Origin: an uncultured Acidobacteriaceae bacterium
GTDB lineage: Bacteria; Acidobacteriota; Terriglobia; Terriglobales; Acidobacteriaceae
DNA length: 64,000 nucleotides
NCBI GenBank assembly: GCA_963824325.1
Contig: CAWGPA010000001.1
Coordinates: 310,393-374,392, forward strand
Direction of reading: 5' to 3'
Shown one piece after another: positions 31,233-39,112 of this stretch; the stretch's first letter is position 1; each line of letters begins with the position of its first letter. The notes under the pieces are model-generated. The model worked only from the letters and a program-made list of their open reading frames with translations. It was not told the origin of the DNA and did no database searches. Made by a program: the position numbers and the translations under genes.

Positions 31233-33551
31233 ATGCTTGCGAAGAGTGACCACTCCGCCGACTCCAGCGTTATCCCCAGGCTTACGCGACGCGGATTCGT
31301 CAAGATGGGCGGCGCTCTCATGGTGTCGTTCGCGTTTCCCGGGTTCTCTGCGATCGCAGCCGAGGTTAAGCCTGCGTCTGAGACCAGGCAATTAGCATCT
31401 TGGCTCGAGATCCGTCAGGACAATACCATTCTTGTGCGCACCGGCCGCACCGAGATCGGTACCGGCATGAGCGCTTATTATGCACAAGTCATCGCGGAAG
31501 AATTGAGCGTCCAAGCAGAAGCCATCACGCTCATTATGGGCGACACGGATAAAACGCCGGACGGCGGCTACTCCGCCGGCTTTCTTTACGGAGCAGTGAA
31601 CCTGCGCAAAGTGGGAGCCTATACCTATCAGGCGCTGCTCGGGCTAGCCGCAGAAAAGCTCCGCGTTCCTGTCGCTACTCTCACGGTTACAGATGGCATC
31701 GTCTCCGGAGGCGGAAAGAGTATCCGCTACGGAGAACTTGTTCAGGACCAGCAGTTCGATCTGAAGATTCCAGTCTCTGGCGCGCCGGCAAAGGTCGACG
31801 CAACGTCGTGGAACGGTATAGCAGGGTTGGACGGTCTGACGGTGCTGGGCGACCCGCCGACGAAGCCCATAAGCCAGTACAAGGTGGTTGGCAAGTCTCA
31901 CCCTATGCCGGGCATTCCGGGCAAGGTCACGGGGAAAACGCAGTGGAGCTGCGATGTCAATTTGCCCGGGATGCTTCACGCACGCATGGTCCGCCCGCCA
32001 ACGCTGGGCTCGACGTTGATCTCCGCCGGCGCGGTGGACAAGGCGCGCTTCCCCAACGCGCAGGTGGTCAGCAAACAAAACCTGGTCGCAGTGCTCTCTC
32101 CCAATGAATGGGAGGCAGTGAGCGCTACCCGATCGGTTGCCTCCAGTACCAAGTGGAGCGAATGGTCGGGTCTGCCGGGCAGCGAACATCTGACCCAGGC
32201 ACTGCGCGACTACAAGTGGGGTGCTCCGTCGGAAAGCAGGGGGAATGCCGCCGATGTCACTGCGGCTCTGGCGCATGCGTCCAAGACTCTCTCGGCAACC
32301 TATGAGCAGCCTTACATCAAACATGCCCCCATTGGTCCCTTTGTGGCGGTGGCCGATGTGCGGAGCGATGGCACAGCCACGGTGTGGACCCATTCTGCAA
32401 ACTCGCAAGGCTTGCGGGCACAGATCGCCAATACGCTGAGCACACCGGTCGAAAAAGTAGTCGTCCGCTGGCTGGACCACGCCGGCCAGTTTGGGCGCAC
32501 AACCTTCGGAGGTGACGGCGCGGAAGGGGACGCGGCGATCCTCTCGCAGTTGACCGGGAGGCCAGTGCGTGTGCAGTGGACTTTGCAGGAGGACCTGGCA
32601 TGGTCGGCATCCTCGCCCGGCTGGGTGGAGGATATAAGCTGCGGCCTTGACGACCATGGCTGCGTGACCGGCCTGCGCAGCGCTTTCTACTCACCTCAAT
32701 CGAATGACGCGCGGATTGTGGGCGCTCTTCTTGCCGGCATGCCTTGCAGCCAGCCTAAGCCGGGCTACTGGATTGCCACTGAGTGGCCGTACGACAAGAT
32801 TCAATGCCGGCAGGAGCAAGTGTATGGGATGCCGAACCTGGGAGCAGATTCGCAGACACCCGGATTGCGCGGGCTCATCATGCGCACGCCCGGACAACGG
32901 CAGCAGAACTTCGCGCTCGAATCGCTGATCAACGAGGCGGCATCGAGCGCAGGGACCGATCCGATTGAGTTCCGGCTCTTGCACACGACCGACCAGCGGC
33001 TCATCGACATCATCCATGCCACGGCGAAGGCTGCCGCCTGGGAGCCACGTCCTTCGCCGCACCCGGGCACGCGCCGTACTGGAACCGAGCCCGTCACCGG
33101 CCGCGGAGTATCCATCATGGTCCGCCAGAACTCGTACTGGATGGGGATCGCCGAGGTGGTAGTGACTCCGGATACGGGCGCGATACAGGTGACAAAGTTC
33201 ACTATTGGTGTCGACTGCGGCAAAGTCATCAACCCGCGGCAACTGGAACGCTGCATGAAGAGCGGCGTGGTCATGGGCGTCAGTGAAGCGCTCAAAGAGG
33301 AGGTCACCTTCGACACGGGAAAAATAACCAGCACCAGTTGGAACCGCTACAAGATCCTGACCATGGCAGAGATGCCAGAGATCAAGGCGGTGCAGATTTC
33401 GCGCGACGACAAAGGCTTCGGCGGGGGCTCTGAAGCCGCCAATGCGGTGTGTACGCCGGCAGTCGCCGCTGCCTTTTTCGATGCAACCGGAGTTCACCCG
33501 CGCAGAATCCCGCTGACTCCCGCGTATGTGACCAAGCTGCTGAAAGGCTAG
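31233..33551 (+). CDS. molybdopterin-binding large subunit (IorB / xanthine dehydrogenase family), TAT signal
   Basis: 772 aa. LTRRGFVKMGGALMVSFAF is twin-arginine-like. GTGMSAYYAQVIAEEL and GFGGGSEAANAVCTPAVAAAFFDATG are motifs typical of the aldehyde oxidase/XDH family. Confidence 0.9.
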   Translation: MLAKSDHSADSSVIPRLTRRGFVKMGGALMVSFAFPGFSAIAAEVKPASETRQLASWLEIRQDNTILVRTGRTEIGTGMSAYYAQVIAEELSVQAEAITLIMGDTDKTPDGGYSAGFLYGAVNLRKVGAYTYQALLGLAAEKLRVPVATLTVTDGIVSGGGKSIRYGELVQDQQFDLKIPVSGAPAKVDATSWNGIAGLDGLTVLGDPPTKPISQYKVVGKSHPMPGIPGKVTGKTQWSCDVNLPGMLHARMVRPPTLGSTLISAGAVDKARFPNAQVVSKQNLVAVLSPNEWEAVSATRSVASSTKWSEWSGLPGSEHLTQALRDYKWGAPSESRGNAADVTAALAHASKTLSATYEQPYIKHAPIGPFVAVADVRSDGTATVWTHSANSQGLRAQIANTLSTPVEKVVVRWLDHAGQFGRTTFGGDGAEGDAAILSQLTGRPVRVQWTLQEDLAWSASSPGWVEDISCGLDDHGCVTGLRSAFYSPQSNDARIVGALLAGMPCSQPKPGYWIATEWPYDKIQCRQEQVYGMPNLGADSQTPGLRGLIMRTPGQRQQNFALESLINEAASSAGTDPIEFRLLHTTDQRLIDIIHATAKAAAWEPRPSPHPGTRRTGTEPVTGRGVSIMVRQNSYWMGIAEVVVTPDTGAIQVTKFTIGVDCGKVINPRQLERCMKSGVVMGVSEALKEEVTFDTGKITSTSWNRYKILTMAEMPEIKAVQISRDDKGFGGGSEAANAVCTPAVAAAFFDATGVHPRRIPLTPAYVTKLLKG

Positions 33552-33570
33552 AATTCCTGCGTGATCGGCC

Positions 33571-34362
33571 CTACTCTGCTAACTGGAAGATGCGAATCTG
33601 AACCAGCTTGCTGATGGTCAGGTCGTCAAATCCCCTGGCCTGCATGCGATGGATGAAGTCCGGCGTCACCTTGAAAATGCGCATCTGGATCAACTCATCG
33701 AGCGTTGGCTGGTAGCCCATGGCCCGAATCTGTTTCACTTCTTCCGGATTGACATGCTGCACGCGCAAGGCAATCAACTTGCCCGCATCCGGAGTCGGAT
33801 AACCAAGCGCATTCAGGCTACGGATATAGTCAGGATCCACATGGAAAATACGCATGGCAATCAGGTTCCCAGAATCAAGGCCGCTCACGCCCGCAGACTG
33901 CAACGAGTGAACCCAGGCGATCCCAATGTCAAATAGCGTGTACGCCTGCAGCTTCTCTGCTTCAAGATCGCGGAATCCCATCTGCAGCATGCGATCGACA
34001 AACGCCGGATCGGGTATGAATGTAAAAGCACCGCTCATCCTGCCGTCATGTACCGCACCGGAGCAGGTGAGGGTGCCGGCTTCGGCGCGAATCCTCGCAT
34101 CCAAATGTGCGCCTTCGTGCTGCAAATCGGCGAGCGCAAAGCCGGAAAACGCGCTCACCGGCTCCTGAGTCTGCGTGGAGGAACAGTTTCCGTTGCCTTC
34201 GCAGCCACTGCGCTCCAAGCGAAGATCCGCCTCGGTGCCATTCGAAGTGGCGGTGATGCTGCACGATCCCGTAAGCGTTCGAAGCTGCTCTTCCGCCTGC
34301 AAAAACAAGCAGGTGCATGCTGCCAGGAATACGAAAAGAACAACCCAGCCGGTCCTTGTCAT
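33571..34362 (-). CDS. exported/anchored protein carrying five ~29-aa repeats shared with the adjacent BlaR1-like protein
   Basis: 263 aa. Its ATG overlaps the BlaR1 stop (ATGA at 34359-34362). N-terminal hydrophobic segment WVVLFVFLAACTCLFL. The C-terminal half consists of repeats such as PDYIRSLNALGYPTPDAGKLIALRVQHVN. Confidence 0.7.
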   Translation of the reverse strand: MTRTGWVVLFVFLAACTCLFLQAEEQLRTLTGSCSITATSNGTEADLRLERSGCEGNGNCSSTQTQEPVSAFSGFALADLQHEGAHLDARIRAEAGTLTCSGAVHDGRMSGAFTFIPDPAFVDRMLQMGFRDLEAEKLQAYTLFDIGIAWVHSLQSAGVSGLDSGNLIAMRIFHVDPDYIRSLNALGYPTPDAGKLIALRVQHVNPEEVKQIRAMGYQPTLDELIQMRIFKVTPDFIHRMQARGFDDLTISKLVQIRIFQLAE

Positions 34363-36233
34363 TTCGCCTCCGAGTCCGAATCGCCCAACACGCCAGAGAT
34401 GCGTAGTTGCACCAGTTTCTCGATCGATAGCGAATTAAAGCCATGACGCTTAGCGTCGGCGAGAAATGCATCGTCAATGTGGAAAATGCGGAGCTGAACC
34501 AACTGATCAAGCGTGACGTTCGGATACTGCTGTTTCGCGGTCCTGGCATACTCGGGAGTTACATTGTGAACACGCAATGCCACCAGCTTTTCCGGCGGAA
34601 TTGCGTCGAAGCCGGCGGCCTTCATCGCAGCAACAAACTCCGGCGTGACCTTGAAGATGCGATAAGAAACCAGATCCTGGACGCTGCTTGGTTGCAGTCC
34701 CGCGGTGCGCAGCTCCGATACATACTCCGGAGTGACGCCCTGGACTTTCATAGCGATCAGTTCATCGGCGGTGGGTTTGCCGTAGCCCACCTTTGCCATC
34801 GCCTGCGCATATTCGGGAGTAATGCCCTGCACCTTCATGGCGACGTACTTGTCGATATCTACGTCGTAGCCGGCGGCGCGCATGGCATCGATATAGTCGG
34901 GCTTGTGTGCTGGGGCTTCGACAGTCGCAGCTTGTTCCGCATTTCCGCCGGAGCCTCCTGAACCAGATCCCGCACCTTCTCCCGTGCCCTTACCAGCACC
35001 TGGAGCGACCTCGGTTGCAATTGCAGCATCTTCGTTCCCAGCAGCCGGGGCTAATGCAACCTGGGCCAGTGGGAGAACCGGAGATGCAAGAGAGCTCTCG
35101 TGTAGGACGCTCGATACAACAGGGGCAGGCAGATCCATTACAGCCGGAGCAGGGATCGCGGGTGGCGCTGTTTGAGCCTGGGTATTCTTCCGCAATCCCG
35201 CGAAGAGGTGAGGCATGGGCAGCAGCACCAGCAGGAACACGGCACAAATCGCGGCCAGCGGTACGGGGACGAGTTCACGCGGACTCTTCTCGGCGTTTGC
35301 TTCACCCAGAATGCGCGCAATCCGCAGGCGGAGACCAGACCATGGCCTATGCCCGTCCAGGGCCATAGCCAGATTTAGCCGCTGATTGCGCCGCTCCTCA
35401 AGGCGCAGCAACGCGGTCGCATATACCAGAGGATCGGCGCACGATTGGACGGCCACATCGTCGCAGCAAAGCTCACGTTGCTGGCGCAGCCTGCCTCCAA
35501 GCCACCACACTGCTGGATGAAAGAAGAATAGGGTTTCGACCATGGTTTGAATCAGGTTCCAGAGATAATCAGCACGACGCACGTGTGCCAGCTCATGCGC
35601 GAGCACCGCCTCCAATTGCTCGGGACTCAGGGCCAACAGTGCAGACGCAGGCAGTATCACCAGCGACCGCACAATTCCGATAGCGAGCGGCCCTTGAATG
35701 TGTTGGGAAATATAGAGATCGACCTGTTGCGTAATCCCAAGCCGTTCGCACAGCCGGAGAAAGTTCGCGTATACGACTTCAGGAGCCTCTACGAGCGCGC
35801 TCCGGCGCAAGCGCTGAATCAGGCGCCATCCGCCGATCGTTCGCGTCGAAAGACACGCCACACCCAGCAACCACGCGACGTCGAGCCAGGGCAGGAATCG
35901 AGAGAGTTGGAGCAGTGCCGGCTGGGTTGTAGCGCCGGCTGTCTTCAGTCCCGCCAAGGGAGCAAGATCACTGGAGAGGTTCGATCCGATCGCCGCCATT
36001 GCGGAGGACGAAAAGGATGACGAGCCGGAGTCGCCGCGCGTCTCCTCATACGCAAACGTTGCCAGCGCGGTGACCATCATCAGGAGCAGGGTTCCCAGCG
36101 CCAACAGATAGCGGGTCTGACTCCGCGCCTTCGACAGCACAACATCGGTAAGCCAATAGACGAGCGCGATCGCTGCCGCCTGCCAGCAGAAATGCACCAG
36201 CGTCCATCCTAGAGACTCCAAATGATGATTCAT
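34359..36233 (-). CDS. BlaR1/MecR1-like M56 family metalloprotease signal transducer with novel C-terminal repeat domain
   Basis: 624 aa. N-terminal TM region, HELAHVRRADY zinc motif, further TM segment, Gly/Ala/Ser-rich linker, then six ~29-aa repeats (aa ~445-615). Confidence 0.9.
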   Translation of the reverse strand: MNHHLESLGWTLVHFCWQAAAIALVYWLTDVVLSKARSQTRYLLALGTLLLMMVTALATFAYEETRGDSGSSSFSSSAMAAIGSNLSSDLAPLAGLKTAGATTQPALLQLSRFLPWLDVAWLLGVACLSTRTIGGWRLIQRLRRSALVEAPEVVYANFLRLCERLGITQQVDLYISQHIQGPLAIGIVRSLVILPASALLALSPEQLEAVLAHELAHVRRADYLWNLIQTMVETLFFFHPAVWWLGGRLRQQRELCCDDVAVQSCADPLVYATALLRLEERRNQRLNLAMALDGHRPWSGLRLRIARILGEANAEKSPRELVPVPLAAICAVFLLVLLPMPHLFAGLRKNTQAQTAPPAIPAPAVMDLPAPVVSSVLHESSLASPVLPLAQVALAPAAGNEDAAIATEVAPGAGKGTGEGAGSGSGGSGGNAEQAATVEAPAHKPDYIDAMRAAGYDVDIDKYVAMKVQGITPEYAQAMAKVGYGKPTADELIAMKVQGVTPEYVSELRTAGLQPSSVQDLVSYRIFKVTPEFVAAMKAAGFDAIPPEKLVALRVHNVTPEYARTAKQQYPNVTLDQLVQLRIFHIDDAFLADAKRHGFNSLSIEKLVQLRISGVLGDSDSEAK

Positions 36234-36622
36234 CGCTTCTCCTGCTTCCGCTCAATTAATTTGCGAATTTCCTTTAGTTCGTCGCCGGTTGCCGGCTCCA
36301 TCGTCAACGCGTGCATGGCTAGTTGCGTAGCGGAGCCAGAGAACAACCGCTCGCTCAAATCTCTTAAGAGCTGGCTCTGCGTATCTTCCTGGCTTGCGGT
36401 GGCGCGATACACATGGGCTCTGCCAACCTCGGTTCGTTGCACCAGACCCTTCTCAGTCATGATCTGCAGCAACTTCAACACCGTGGTGTACCCTAGCGCG
36501 CGTTCCTGGCTTACCGACTCATGAAGCTCGCGGACGGTAGCCGAGCCCTTGAGCCACAACACCCGAAGCAGCTCCAATTCCCCCTCGGTCGGCTTGGGTA
36601 AATTGCTTTGCCTGATCTTCAT
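36230..36622 (-). CDS. BlaI/MecI/CopY family transcriptional repressor
   Basis: Start set at the ATG at 36622 (MKIRQSNLPKPTEGELELLRVLWLKGSATVRELHESV...GYTTVLKLLQIMTEKGLV). Its stop overlaps the BlaR1 ATG (ATGA). Confidence 0.9.
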   Translation of the reverse strand: MKIRQSNLPKPTEGELELLRVLWLKGSATVRELHESVSQERALGYTTVLKLLQIMTEKGLVQRTEVGRAHVYRATASQEDTQSQLLRDLSERLFSGSATQLAMHALTMEPATGDELKEIRKLIERKQEKR

Positions 36623-36634
36623 GGAGGAACCATA

Positions 36635-36672
36635 TACGAAGTCCTTCGTAGCTGTCAACGAAGATCTTCGTA
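36635..36672. promoter_or_regulatory. two tandem 16-bp palindromes (candidate BlaI operators)
   Basis: TACGAAGTCCTTCGTA (36635-36650) and AACGAAGATCTTCGTA (36657-36672). Both contain ACGAAG-N2-CTTCGT and their centres are 22 bp apart. They begin 13 nt upstream of the blaI start, in the divergent region shared with the DinB gene. Confidence 0.6.
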
Positions 36673-36762
36673 GATGGTATCCAGGCTGTGTGACCGCACT
36701 TAGCACCCGGGATTCTTTCGCCGGTATACTTCCCACATCTATCGCCGAGCGAGGTTCTAACC

Positions 36763-37296
36763 ATGAGAAGACTGGCTTTCTTTCTATTGCTTGCCATACC
36801 AATGGCTGGTTCCGCCCAAAACAAGAAGCCGCCCACCACCCTTCGCGGCGTATTGCTGGAGCAACTGCACACCACCCACGACGTAGAAGATTGGTTTGTC
36901 CCAGCCAACGTTGCGGTGGCAGGCCTCACCGCCGAGCAGGCCAAATGGAGCCCCGGAAAAGGCAACCACTCCGTCGGCCAACTGGCCTACCATCTCTGGT
37001 TTTGGGATCAAAGCGCGCTGGCCCGCTTCAAAGGCGAGAAGGCCGCTCCCTTCGACGGAAACAACAACGAGACTTTCGACAATTTCACCTCTGCCCAATG
37101 GGACGACCTGGTGAAGAAGCTCAACCAGGTAATGACCGACTGGGAAAAGGCCGTCGAAACAGCCGATGACCAGAAGCTGGCCGAGAAAGCATCCCTCGTC
37201 GCCCATGTGGGAGCACATAACGCTTACCACATTGGCCAGATTCTTTACGTCCGCAAGCTGCAAGGTGTCTGGGATCCCAGCAAGGGTGTGAAGTAG
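36763..37296 (+). CDS. DinB-family (DinB_2-like) four-helix protein with signal peptide
   Basis: 177 aa. MRRLAFFLLLAIPMAGSAQ, then ...SVGQLAYHLWFWD...HVGAHNAYHIGQILYVRKLQG gives the His triad pattern of the DinB superfamily. Confidence 0.8.
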   Translation: MRRLAFFLLLAIPMAGSAQNKKPPTTLRGVLLEQLHTTHDVEDWFVPANVAVAGLTAEQAKWSPGKGNHSVGQLAYHLWFWDQSALARFKGEKAAPFDGNNNETFDNFTSAQWDDLVKKLNQVMTDWEKAVETADDQKLAEKASLVAHVGAHNAYHIGQILYVRKLQGVWDPSKGVK

Positions 37297-37345: not shown

Positions 37346-39112
37346 ATGTCGAAGACCGGGACAAGCATCACACGCAGAGCTTTGTTAAAGAAGGCCACAG
37401 TGCCTGCAGCGGGCGCTGTACTGCTTCATCAAAAAAGTTGGGCCCAGAATCCCGGAGGTACGCACGCTGCAGAGTCACGCCTTCATCTGCCAGTCCTCTC
37501 GCAACCTGACTTGGCGTTTGCATTTACCGGGGACGCCGAGCCGGACCGATACAACTTGTCGCGAGCAGGCAGTGGGTGGACCGGGAGCAGCCAGGCCGCC
37601 GGCGTGCGTGTCGACTTTCTTCCCGGGGCACGGCAGGCGGAAGTCTCGCTCGAGTCTCCCACTCTCCCCGTGCAGCGGATTCATCTTCGCTGGAAGGGTC
37701 AATTCCCTGCTGACGTTCTTGCTCTCGGCGACGCCTGGGAGAGGAGCTATGGCGATCTTGCGTGGCGGCCATTGCAGGCGGAACGTGCGCTGCCTTGGTA
37801 CGCGATGCTCCACTCGAAGGAACAAACCGTCGGCATGGGCGTCAAGACGGGGGCCGCATCCTTCGCTTTCTGGCAGGTGGACCCCTCGGGGATATCGCTC
37901 TGGCTCGACGTCCGCAATGGAAGCAATGGCGTGCAGTTGGGCGACCGTAAACTGCAAATGGCTACGATCGTGACACACATCGGTGGGGGGGGAGAAAGCG
38001 CCTTCACCGCCACGCAACGCTTGTGCCGTGCGATGACCGAGGGAACGAAGATTCCCGGCAAACGGGGTGTCACTTCCGTCGATGTGATTTACGGAAGCAA
38101 CGACTGGTATTACGCCTACGGCAAAAATACGCCAGAGGGAATTCTGCGCGATGCAGACCTGGTAAGGTCTCTCGCGCCGGCGACAGGCGACAAGCCATTT
38201 ACCGTTATTGACGATGGATATCAGGATAAGTCTCGTTTCCCCAGCCTGCAAAAACTGGCTGCAGAGATCCGCAGCCGTGAGGTCATCCCTGGGATCTGGA
38301 TCCGGCCTTTACGCGCTGCGGCGAACACCAGCAGCACACTCCTGCTCCCGGCCGAACGCTGGAAGGGACCCAGCAGCGAGCAGCCCCCTCTGGCATACGA
38401 TCCGACCATTCCAGAAGCGCTCGAAGCCGCCGCGGCAGTGGCAGGGGAGGCGTGCGCATGGGGCTTTGACCTGATCAAGCATGACTTCACCACCTTCGAA
38501 CTGCTGGGCCAGTGGGGCAGCCAAATGGGGGCTTCCCCGACCCAAGGGAATTGGCATTTCAACGATCGCACGCTCACCAACGCTGAAATCGTAACCGTGT
38601 TATATCGGCGTCTGCGTGCAAGCTGCGGAGAAGAGCGCGTCATCCTTGGCTGCAACACCGTCGGCCACCTGTCGGTGGGAATATTCGATGCCTCGCGTAC
38701 CGGGGACGACGTCAGCGGAAAAGAGTGGGAGAGGACCCGCCGCCTGGGCGTTAACACACTCGCCTTTCGCATGCCGCAGCACAAGGTGTTTTACTCGCTC
38801 GATGCCGACTGTGTCCCCCTCACCCCAGACGTGCCCTGGTCCATGAGCCGGCAATGGCTAGAGGTGGTGGCAAATAGCGGCAGCGTACTGCTGGTCTCAC
38901 CCGATCCCAGGGCAATCGGCAAGCCGCAGCGAGACGCCCTACGCGAAGCGTTTGCACGCTGCGTTCATAAGCCCAGCAGTGAACCCCTGGATTGGATCGA
39001 AACCCGTACGCCCCATACCTGGCGCTCTTCAGCTCAACCGTCCAACTACGACTGGATATTGGAAGAAGGAGAGAGTCCGTTTCCTATCGGAATACAGCGC
39101 GGACCTGATTAG
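37346..39112 (+). CDS. TAT-exported putative glycoside hydrolase (alpha-galactosidase/melibiase-like TIM barrel)
   Basis: 588 aa with a twin-arginine signal (ITRRALLKKATVPAAGAVLL). FTVIDDGYQD and DLIKHDFTT resemble the DDGW and KxD blocks of the GH27/36 clan. The functional call is tentative. Confidence 0.5.
   Translation: MSKTGTSITRRALLKKATVPAAGAVLLHQKSWAQNPGGTHAAESRLHLPVLSQPDLAFAFTGDAEPDRYNLSRAGSGWTGSSQAAGVRVDFLPGARQAEVSLESPTLPVQRIHLRWKGQFPADVLALGDAWERSYGDLAWRPLQAERALPWYAMLHSKEQTVGMGVKTGAASFAFWQVDPSGISLWLDVRNGSNGVQLGDRKLQMATIVTHIGGGGESAFTATQRLCRAMTEGTKIPGKRGVTSVDVIYGSNDWYYAYGKNTPEGILRDADLVRSLAPATGDKPFTVIDDGYQDKSRFPSLQKLAAEIRSREVIPGIWIRPLRAAANTSSTLLLPAERWKGPSSEQPPLAYDPTIPEALEAAAAVAGEACAWGFDLIKHDFTTFELLGQWGSQMGASPTQGNWHFNDRTLTNAEIVTVLYRRLRASCGEERVILGCNTVGHLSVGIFDASRTGDDVSGKEWERTRRLGVNTLAFRMPQHKVFYSLDADCVPLTPDVPWSMSRQWLEVVANSGSVLLVSPDPRAIGKPQRDALREAFARCVHKPSSEPLDWIETRTPHTWRSSAQPSNYDWILEEGESPFPIGIQRGPD

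Follow-up and report, generated by a model that had tools for sequence, protein, structure and literature searches.

A BlaI/M56 operon of Acidobacteriaceae whose protease and predicted secreted partner share a tandem 29-residue repeat

We analysed a 64,000-nucleotide stretch of DNA from an uncultured Acidobacteriaceae bacterium (NCBI GenBank assembly GCA_963824325.1, contig CAWGPA010000001.1, positions 310,393 to 374,392), which we call the window, and found that three consecutive minus-strand open reading frames (ORFs) at 36230-36622, 34359-36233 and 33571-34362 encode a BlaI-type repressor, an M56 protease and a third protein, termed the partner here, whose C-terminus is built of the same repeat as that of the protease. 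We consider it very probable that this operon specifies a proteolytic switch of the BlaI/BlaR type with a new periplasmic repeat sensor. Whether the receptor is also split in two, with the partner as a detachable half that would act together with a solenoid tethered to the protease, is in our judgement evenly poised. The parts of the three proteins are as follows.

36230-36622, minus strand: BlaI-type winged-helix repressor, 130 residues from its ATG, matching PF03965 Penicillinase_R (E = 1e-26).
35199-36233, minus strand: protease part of the M56 protein, residues 1-345, with four predicted transmembrane (TM) helices and a cytoplasmic zinc-protease domain.
34902-35198, minus strand: disordered periplasmic linker of the M56 protein, residues 346-444, rich in Pro, Ala and Gly; predicted local distance difference test (pLDDT) score below 50 for residues 357-443.
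34389-34901, minus strand: six tandem two-helix repeats of 28-29 residues, M56 residues 445-615, predicted to form a periplasmic alpha-solenoid.
34294-34362, minus strand: predicted signal peptide of the partner, residues 1-23, with the cleavage site LQA/EE read from the sequence.
34009-34284, minus strand: predicted beta domain of the partner, residues 27-118, of six strands, with conserved C34, C54, C60 and C100.
33574-34008, minus strand: five tandem repeats of 28-30 residues, of the same module, partner residues 119-263.

An earlier reading of these letters, here called the original prediction, had proposed the gene order of a BlaI-type repressor, an M56 protein with a HELAH motif and a 263-residue protein, joined by ATGA overlaps at 36230-36233 and 34359-34362; the ORFs and family matches bore out this order, and both overlaps are present. 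A GGAG lies 5-6 nt 5' of the ATG of each of the two downstream genes. With 94 bits on PF03965 (cut-off 22.6), the repressor is a winged-helix protein of the BlaI/MecI/CopY family; it scores under the cut-offs of the NCBIfam CopY/TcrY and BlaI models, and its ATG is the start that gene callers use in two relatives (loci L001 and L004). The dipeptide N101-F102, at which Staphylococcus aureus BlaI is cleaved, is not conserved: in an alignment made by eye, its position is occupied by H-A. The 624-residue product of the second gene (34359-36233) matches Peptidase_M56 (PF05569; E = 1.6e-31), and this M56/BlaI pair is the only one in the window.

The M56 protein retains the catalytic features of the family. 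HELAH occupies residues 213-217 (nt 35583-35597), E254 and D258 form an ExxxD motif, and R304 is present, matching the list of HExxH, ExxxD and Arg motifs given for S. aureus BlaR1 (bioRxiv 10.64898/2026.08.03.742534); H213, E214, H217, E254, D258 and R304 are invariant across 50 homologues. An AlphaFold model of the protein (mean pLDDT 81) was confident over the M56 domain, residues 1-345, and a Foldseek search with the N-terminal part retrieved the cryo-electron microscopy structures of S. aureus BlaR1 (8EXQ, 8EXP and 8EXR; E = 2e-05, probability 1.0). The distribution of lysine and arginine obeys the positive-inside rule for the BlaR1 topology, in which the N-terminus is outside, the protease loop inside and the C-terminus outside. 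The protein is predicted to have four TM helices, a cytoplasmic protease and a periplasmic C-terminal domain. As the original prediction had stated, that domain is no penicillin-binding sensor: Pfam and NCBIfam scans gave no PF00905 or Beta-lactamase match, and the NCBIfam model blaR1_generic matched residues 119-341 only, with 91.7 bits (cut-off 400).

The C-terminal domain consists instead of repeats, and all eleven repeat peptides listed in the original prediction (six in the M56 protein, five in the partner) were recovered exactly where it had placed them. Compared by BLASTP, the two repeat domains align with E = 6e-28 in several registers at 25-37% identity (37% in the best register). A hidden Markov model (HMM) of the repeat unit found 6+5 copies in the six-frame translation of the window, a count that is circular for these copies, and no copy elsewhere in that translation. 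The consensus is TPEF-x2-E-x3-LGY-x6-D-x-LV-x-MRIHGV. No tandem repeat was detected at the DNA level, and the copies are therefore old and have been kept at the protein level; in view of this absence and of the low identity between the two repeat domains, a recent duplication or an assembly artefact was rejected. The M56 repeats were modelled as twelve helices (residues 447-613, pLDDT 93-97) and those of the partner as ten (pLDDT 93-98).

The original prediction could attach no named domain to this repeat, and our searches agree. Scans with Pfam and NCBIfam yielded only sub-threshold UBA and HHH_5 matches, the TPR, Sel1, HEAT, HEAT_PBS, Ank and PPR profiles matched neither protein at E<=1, and 90 homologues (40 stand-alone, 50 M56) gave only scattered and inconsistent helical-domain matches (e.g. 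HHH_5 in 15 of 50). A profile search of the PDB with the double repeat had a single match, the de novo designed helical-repeat protein 8v2d (E = 0.008), and Foldseek with the solenoid of the M56 model found the same designed protein (E = 0.0096), while the partner model found nothing at E<=0.001 (best 0.013, at a template modelling score of <=0.2). We thus found no natural structural analogue of the repeat in the PDB; the closest solved structure to this natural repeat, by sequence and by fold, is a de novo design (8v2d_J). The repeat resembles TPR, Sel1, HEAT/PBS-lyase, TALE and designed repeats in having tandem helix-turn-helix units of ~29-34 residues with a predicted solenoid fold, but differs from them in its distinctive consensus, its strictly periplasmic predicted location and its pairing with a specific beta domain.

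Conservation was quantified as the majority-residue fraction per segment in 79 partner and 72 M56 orthologues. In the partner this fraction was 0.83-0.86 for repeats p3 and p4 and 0.64 for the beta domain, and the last two repeats form the most conserved stretch of the protein. In the M56 protein it was 0.66-0.80 for the repeats, 0.73 for the protease core and 0.35 for the linker, which is among the two least conserved M56 segments together with periplasmic loop L2 (0.30). Purifying selection on the repeats is strong, surface positions included, and their conservation equals or exceeds that of the protease core.

The partner (263 residues; 33571-34362) matches no Pfam or NCBIfam family, and a look-up of its exact sequence returned no recorded contig. 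Its hydrophobic N-terminus, taken for an anchor in the original prediction, looks instead like a cleavable signal peptide, because the LQA/EE that follows the hydrophobic core is nearly invariant in 39 orthologues (A23 invariant, E24 almost so) and because distant stand-alone homologues of the partner begin with canonical signal peptides. In the same orthologues C16 and C18 of the signal region are not conserved, and the four cysteines C34, C54, C60 and C100 are. These last belong to a conserved beta domain between signal and repeats that the original prediction had not contained. In an AlphaFold2 model of the partner (pLDDT 89, predicted template modelling score 0.80) an N-terminal hydrophobic helix is followed by this domain, with strands within residues 30-117, and then by ten helices, two per repeat, within residues 119-258; pLDDT in the beta domain is ~90 apart from one loop. 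An HMM of the beta domain, built from the partner and distant stand-alone homologues, matches the partner with E = 6e-23. A PDB profile search with the domain gave no significant match (best, OAA lectin, E = 0.19), and lipocalin, CYTH and DcrB, which appeared as weak Foldseek matches of low probability, were rejected as its fold. The partner is predicted to be secreted, and its body would be periplasmic whether the signal is cleaved or not, in the same compartment as the protease repeats. A common periplasmic location of both repeat domains, which the original prediction had named as a check, is thus predicted from the positive-inside pattern of the protease and from the signal peptide and four conserved cysteines of the partner.

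We also examined the region directly upstream of the blaI ATG, in which a promoter and a pair of predicted operator dyads, 22 bp apart, are interleaved.

36657-36672: predicted operator dyad 1, minus-strand sequence TACGAAGATCTTCGTT, the end of which provides the first bases of the -35 hexamer.
36635-36650: predicted operator dyad 2, TACGAAGGACTTCGTA; it occupies the spacer of the promoter right up to the -10 hexamer.
36629-36658, minus strand: predicted sigma-70-type promoter, TTGACA, 18 nt, TATGGT (10 of 12 matches), with the -10 hexamer at 36634-36629.

The pair of dyads, with the core TACGAA-N4-TTCGTA, stands in the same place in 77/77 related loci. The string 'TTCGTTGACA' is unchanged in 74/74 loci and the -35 hexamer is likewise kept in 74/74; dyad 1 always ends in T because it overlaps this hexamer. 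TTGACA/TATGGT is the only promoter-like site within 33400-36900. Further dyads at <=1 mismatch were absent from 80 related loci (~12.7 kb each), and the 64-kb window held one further match only, with 2 mismatches, which is within chance expectation. Since the dyads overlap the promoter, the operon is predicted to repress itself through them and to be their sole local target. The half-site TACGAA is unlike the TACA/TGTA type of BlaI and MecI operators. Because 6 nt separate the -10 hexamer from the blaI ATG (36622), which places the predicted transcript start at or next to this ATG, the mRNA is probably leaderless; no Shine-Dalgarno sequence precedes blaI, unlike the two downstream genes. This leaderless-type arrangement of the promoter is kept in related loci.

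By every feature that can be judged from sequence, the system is a member of the BlaI/M56 family that has no beta-lactam sensor. As in BlaI/BlaR1 and MecI/MecR1 of Staphylococcus and Bacillus (PMC9834060), a PF03965 repressor is paired with a four-TM M56 protein carrying HExxH, ExxxD and Arg, the protease is cytoplasmic and the C-terminal sensor extracytoplasmic (here by prediction, with the structural match to 8EXQ/8EXP), and a pair of operator dyads, spaced by about two helical turns, covers the promoter in an autoregulatory arrangement. The sensor of those systems is an acyl-serine transferase (a penicillin-binding protein or class D type), whereas here it would be the six-copy helical repeat; the operon is repressor-first, has no linked beta-lactamase or penicillin-binding protein gene, and includes a third, predicted secreted protein with the sensor's own module. 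Its host, moreover, is a Gram-negative soil bacterium of the Acidobacteriota.

The original prediction had called this an uncharacterised variant of BlaR/BlaI signalling, and part of that claim holds. The missing transpeptidase sensor is ordinary, because most M56 proteins have none: in a 2026 survey a transpeptidase domain occurred in ~6% of M56 proteins, leaving ~94% without a beta-lactam sensor, and the commonest architecture has a C-terminal region without identifiable domain (PMC13492132). The M56 protein of the window falls in the InterPro class of this commonest architecture. CenIR of Clostridioides difficile (PMC13492132), PvmSR of Pseudomonas aeruginosa (bioRxiv 10.64898/2026.08.03.742534) and mycobacterial BlaIR, cited in both of these papers, are likewise pairs of an M56 protein and a BlaI-type repressor without a transpeptidase domain; their extracytoplasmic part is short, absent or different, and they are described without a repeat solenoid and without a co-transcribed periplasmic protein that shares the sensor's domain. 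In the literature that we searched, the coverage of which is incomplete, we found neither the repeat nor the beta domain described, nor any BlaR-type protease with a periplasmic partner.

We then asked how widely the three genes occur together, sampling one genome per species by a scan with orthologue alignments, which gave 80 loci. All are from Acidobacteriaceae/Terriglobales, with 51-90% identity to the partner, and the genera include Silvibacterium, Alloacidobacterium, Edaphobacter, Terracidiphilus and Acidobacterium (Acidobacterium sp. S8). Conservation of the partner gene next to M56 genes had been named as a check on the original prediction, and the gene lies directly downstream of a repeat-bearing M56 gene in 77/77 loci where the contig allows this to be seen, these loci having been found through the partner. 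The full order, BlaI, then M56 with repeats, then a partner with beta domain and repeats, also holds in 77/77 loci, and again in locus L091 and ten unrelated metagenome loci. Across the 77 loci the protease has 4-12 repeats and the partner constantly 4-5. The 4-nt overlaps are strict across genera and the flanking genes vary from locus to locus, indicating that the trio moves together. In several loci from metagenome-assembled genomes (L016, L040, L070 and others) the M56 gene is split into two to four frames, which are probably frameshifts of long-read assembly and not pseudogenes.

Beyond this set the repeat family is large. A double-repeat profile searched against 1.84 billion representative proteins matched 3,949 clusters (at 50% identity) with E<=1e-3 and 892 with E<=1e-30. 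Among the best 150 representatives, 111 are M56-class proteins with HExxH, four hydrophobic segments and 4-14 C-terminal repeats; Pfam was run on 49 of these 111 long proteins and on that of the window, and every one matched Peptidase_M56. The other 39 are short, and 32 of them consist of a signal peptide, a beta domain and 4-9 repeats, the rest being mostly fragments. No transducer other than M56 was found fused to the repeats among these 150. Named sources of the module are Acidobacteriaceae (Terriglobia), Blastocatellia and Candidatus Krumholzibacterium (Krumholzibacteriota).

The distribution of the beta domain bears most directly on the role of the partner. Its HMM was positive in 48/111 of the M56-class representatives, always between the fourth TM helix and the repeats, and the order of beta domain (consensus GxW ... 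R[DE]AG ... GxGxGxFxFxP) and then repeats is the same in the 32 stand-alone and the 48 M56-fused proteins. Since the beta domain is found inside M56 proteins too, we regard beta domain and solenoid as one module that is either fused or secreted. The two forms are complementary. M56 orthologues of the window's type lack the beta domain (0/72), and the window's own M56 protein was negative as well, linker included; in the 77 genome loci, L091 and the ten metagenome loci, this repeats-only M56 gene is followed by a gene for beta domain and repeats. In fused-type loci (L149 and L172-L176), which were chosen without reference to the partner, BlaI is followed by an M56 protein with both beta domain and repeats (6/6), and a separate gene for beta domain and repeats was found in 0/6 of these loci. 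Such a pattern is what fission of a receptor gene predicts, and it would be hard to explain if the partner were a mere downstream effector. The co-sensor idea of the original prediction thereby gains indirect support, in that other lineages fuse the beta domain and repeats whole to M56 and have no partner gene, and it is this comparison of fused forms elsewhere with the split form here that leads us to propose the partner as a detachable receptor half.

Acylation of the BlaR1 sensor is followed by direct cleavage of BlaI by the metalloprotease domain (PMC9834060). In the corresponding model of the acidobacterial system, BlaI would sit on the two dyads over its own promoter and hold the leaderless three-gene operon down. 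The M56 protein would be an inner-membrane protein that exposes its zinc-protease domain to the cytoplasm and extends its C-terminus into the periplasm on a flexible tether of ~100 residues, the six-repeat alpha-solenoid at this C-terminus replacing the penicillin-binding domain. The secreted partner, a small disulfide-bonded beta domain with a five-repeat solenoid, would supply the beta domain in trans and associate with the tethered solenoid, by direct contact of the two solenoids or with both bound next to each other to one ligand. A change of ligand or envelope state at this pair would then lead the cytoplasmic protease to cleave BlaI and so derepress the operon. Of the elements of this model, the genes, the repeats and the selection on them, the synteny, the operator and promoter sites and the distribution of fused and split forms are observed, and the topology and the folds are predictions; we infer the physical association of the pair, the sign of the partner's effect, the cleavage of BlaI, the ligand and any remote target genes. 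A more specific and more tentative version, which we rate somewhat below an even chance, is that beta domain and 29-residue solenoid are an undescribed, widespread periplasmic sensor module that recognises ligands in a large subclass of BlaR-type proteases, and that here, where the receptor would be split, the partner would dock by contact between repeats and gate the cleavage of the repressor.

Soluble periplasmic proteins that serve as the ligand-binding half of a receptor beside a membrane transducer are known from LuxP-LuxQ, TorT-TorS and ChvE-VirA. The comparison is one of analogy only, as the transducer is a kinase in those systems and a protease here, and the partner, which is no Venus-flytrap protein, shares a homologous repeat with its transducer. 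A third co-transcribed gene that modulates the switch is also found in mecR1-mecI-mecR2, where MecR2 is described as an anti-repressor acting on MecI (PMC3406092). The partner differs in being exported by prediction, in sharing the domain of the sensor and in its similarity to no named family. Its predicted signal peptide, its four conserved cysteines and the lack of a family match do not fit a cytoplasmic anti-repressor of the MecR2 type, and we regard the two proteins as unrelated.

Several observations weigh against the split receptor. The split-type loci were ascertained through the partner, so that 77/77 is biased in that direction, and the fused-type sample comprises six loci that are perhaps not phylogenetically independent. 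No local output gene was found outside the operon, and a purely regulatory partner would leave the window without a visible effector. Finally, among ~24 informative stand-alone metagenome genes 12 have no M56 gene in the locus (ten of the rest have one directly upstream, and two have a truncated repeat-bearing ORF at the contig edge). The existence of stand-alone genes without linked M56 implies that the module is not just an accessory of M56 but has a periplasmic function of its own, and this autonomy keeps alive a reading in which the partner is an effector that sequesters something.

According to this alternative, which we hold to be rather unlikely although the best of the competing explanations, the partner is the regulated output: the solenoid would sense a ligand, and derepression would flood the periplasm with a soluble module that sequesters or shields that ligand. 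It follows the logic of bla operons, in which the sensor domain of BlaR1 and the induced beta-lactamase both bind beta-lactams. The partner is the sole non-regulatory product under the conserved operators, given that no other dyad was found in the window or in the 80 flanking regions, and its repeat number is fixed at 4-5 while that of the sensor varies from 4 to 12; the stand-alone proteins of beta domain and repeats without linked M56 also argue for an autonomous periplasmic role. An output of this kind, however, leaves unexplained why M56 proteins in operons with a partner lack the beta domain and why M56 proteins bearing the beta domain lack a partner, and translational coupling, which points to synthesis in near-stoichiometric amounts with the sensor, better suits a subunit than a bulk effector.

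Less probable again is that the partner is an inhibitor or decoy in a negative feedback loop, binding the sensor solenoid or competing for its ligand and keeping the protease off; induction would raise the level of the partner and reset the switch, much as for CpxP-CpxA and RseB-RseA. Partner and sensor have the compartment and the repeat module in common, their co-expression from a self-repressed promoter would build in feedback, and the location of the most conserved surface in the last two partner repeats is consistent with a protein-protein interface. This evidence is the same as that for a co-receptor, and the sign of the effect is unreadable from sequence; a pure decoy, though, needs no conserved beta domain and fails to explain the fused forms, in which the module belongs to the sensor polypeptide itself. 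We judge it quite improbable that the repeats are a rigid stalk or envelope anchor, a spacer to peptidoglycan or outer membrane, with the partner a functionally unrelated envelope protein, for although the M56 repeat number ranges from 4 to 14 as in a spacer and structural resemblance is only to generic designed helical repeats, such a stalk is at odds with a conservation of individual repeats that equals that of the catalytic domain and extends from core to surface positions, with the strict gene order and 4-nt overlaps across genera despite changing flanks, and with the complementary fused and split distribution of the beta domain.

The surroundings of the operon and of its stand-alone relatives provided further observations. 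In the window, a DinB-family gene (36763-37296) is divergent from the operon and genes for a molybdenum hydroxylase are convergent with it; neither flank is kept as a neighbour in related loci. Adjoining the DinB gene is a 588-residue ORF (37346-39112, plus strand) with a twin-arginine-type signal (TRRALLK), for which Pfam gave no match at E<=1e-4. In another lineage (L087, L093, L101 and L108), whose loci contain no M56 gene, the stand-alone gene for beta domain and repeats comes directly 3' of the housekeeping genes rph (RNase PH) and rdgB (Ham1). In L088, from Candidatus Krumholzibacterium, the stand-alone gene follows genes for an extracytoplasmic function (ECF) sigma factor, a HEAT-like protein and a DUF4097 protein, and in both L088 and L094 an ArsR-type helix-turn-helix gene lies just 3' of the module gene. 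A 569-residue secreted protein (P0256; L089, 5001-6710) contains the module twice, as beta domain, repeats, beta domain, repeats, and its gene is embedded in an array of five genes for MacB-type (MacB_PCD/FtsX) permeases. Permeases of this kind adjoin repeat-module genes in four independent contexts (L004-L006, L088, L089/L090 and L174), and in L174 the permease gene shares the strand of a fused-type M56 gene and lies 3' of it. Because MacB-type permeases are very abundant in Acidobacteriota, this adjacency is a lead only and may be due to chance. A search with the beta-domain alignment returned 11 short proteins; P0275-P0279, of 134-150 residues, match the beta domain alone and could represent fragments or a form of the module that has no repeats.

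Signalling by regulated proteolysis has its textbook example in BlaI/BlaR1, and this locus defines one sensor among the unannotated C-termini of M56 proteins. The sensor family is large and recognisable by HMM, and its fused and split forms amount to a natural experiment on which pieces belong together; a conserved operator, two small soluble domains and a predicted protein pair offer handles on the system. If the receptor is indeed split, this would add a binding-protein-dependent mode to protease-based transmembrane signalling and would make the operon the first example of a BlaR-type switch that has its own periplasmic co-receptor, and it would open a route to what the abundant Acidobacteriota of soil sense in their envelope.

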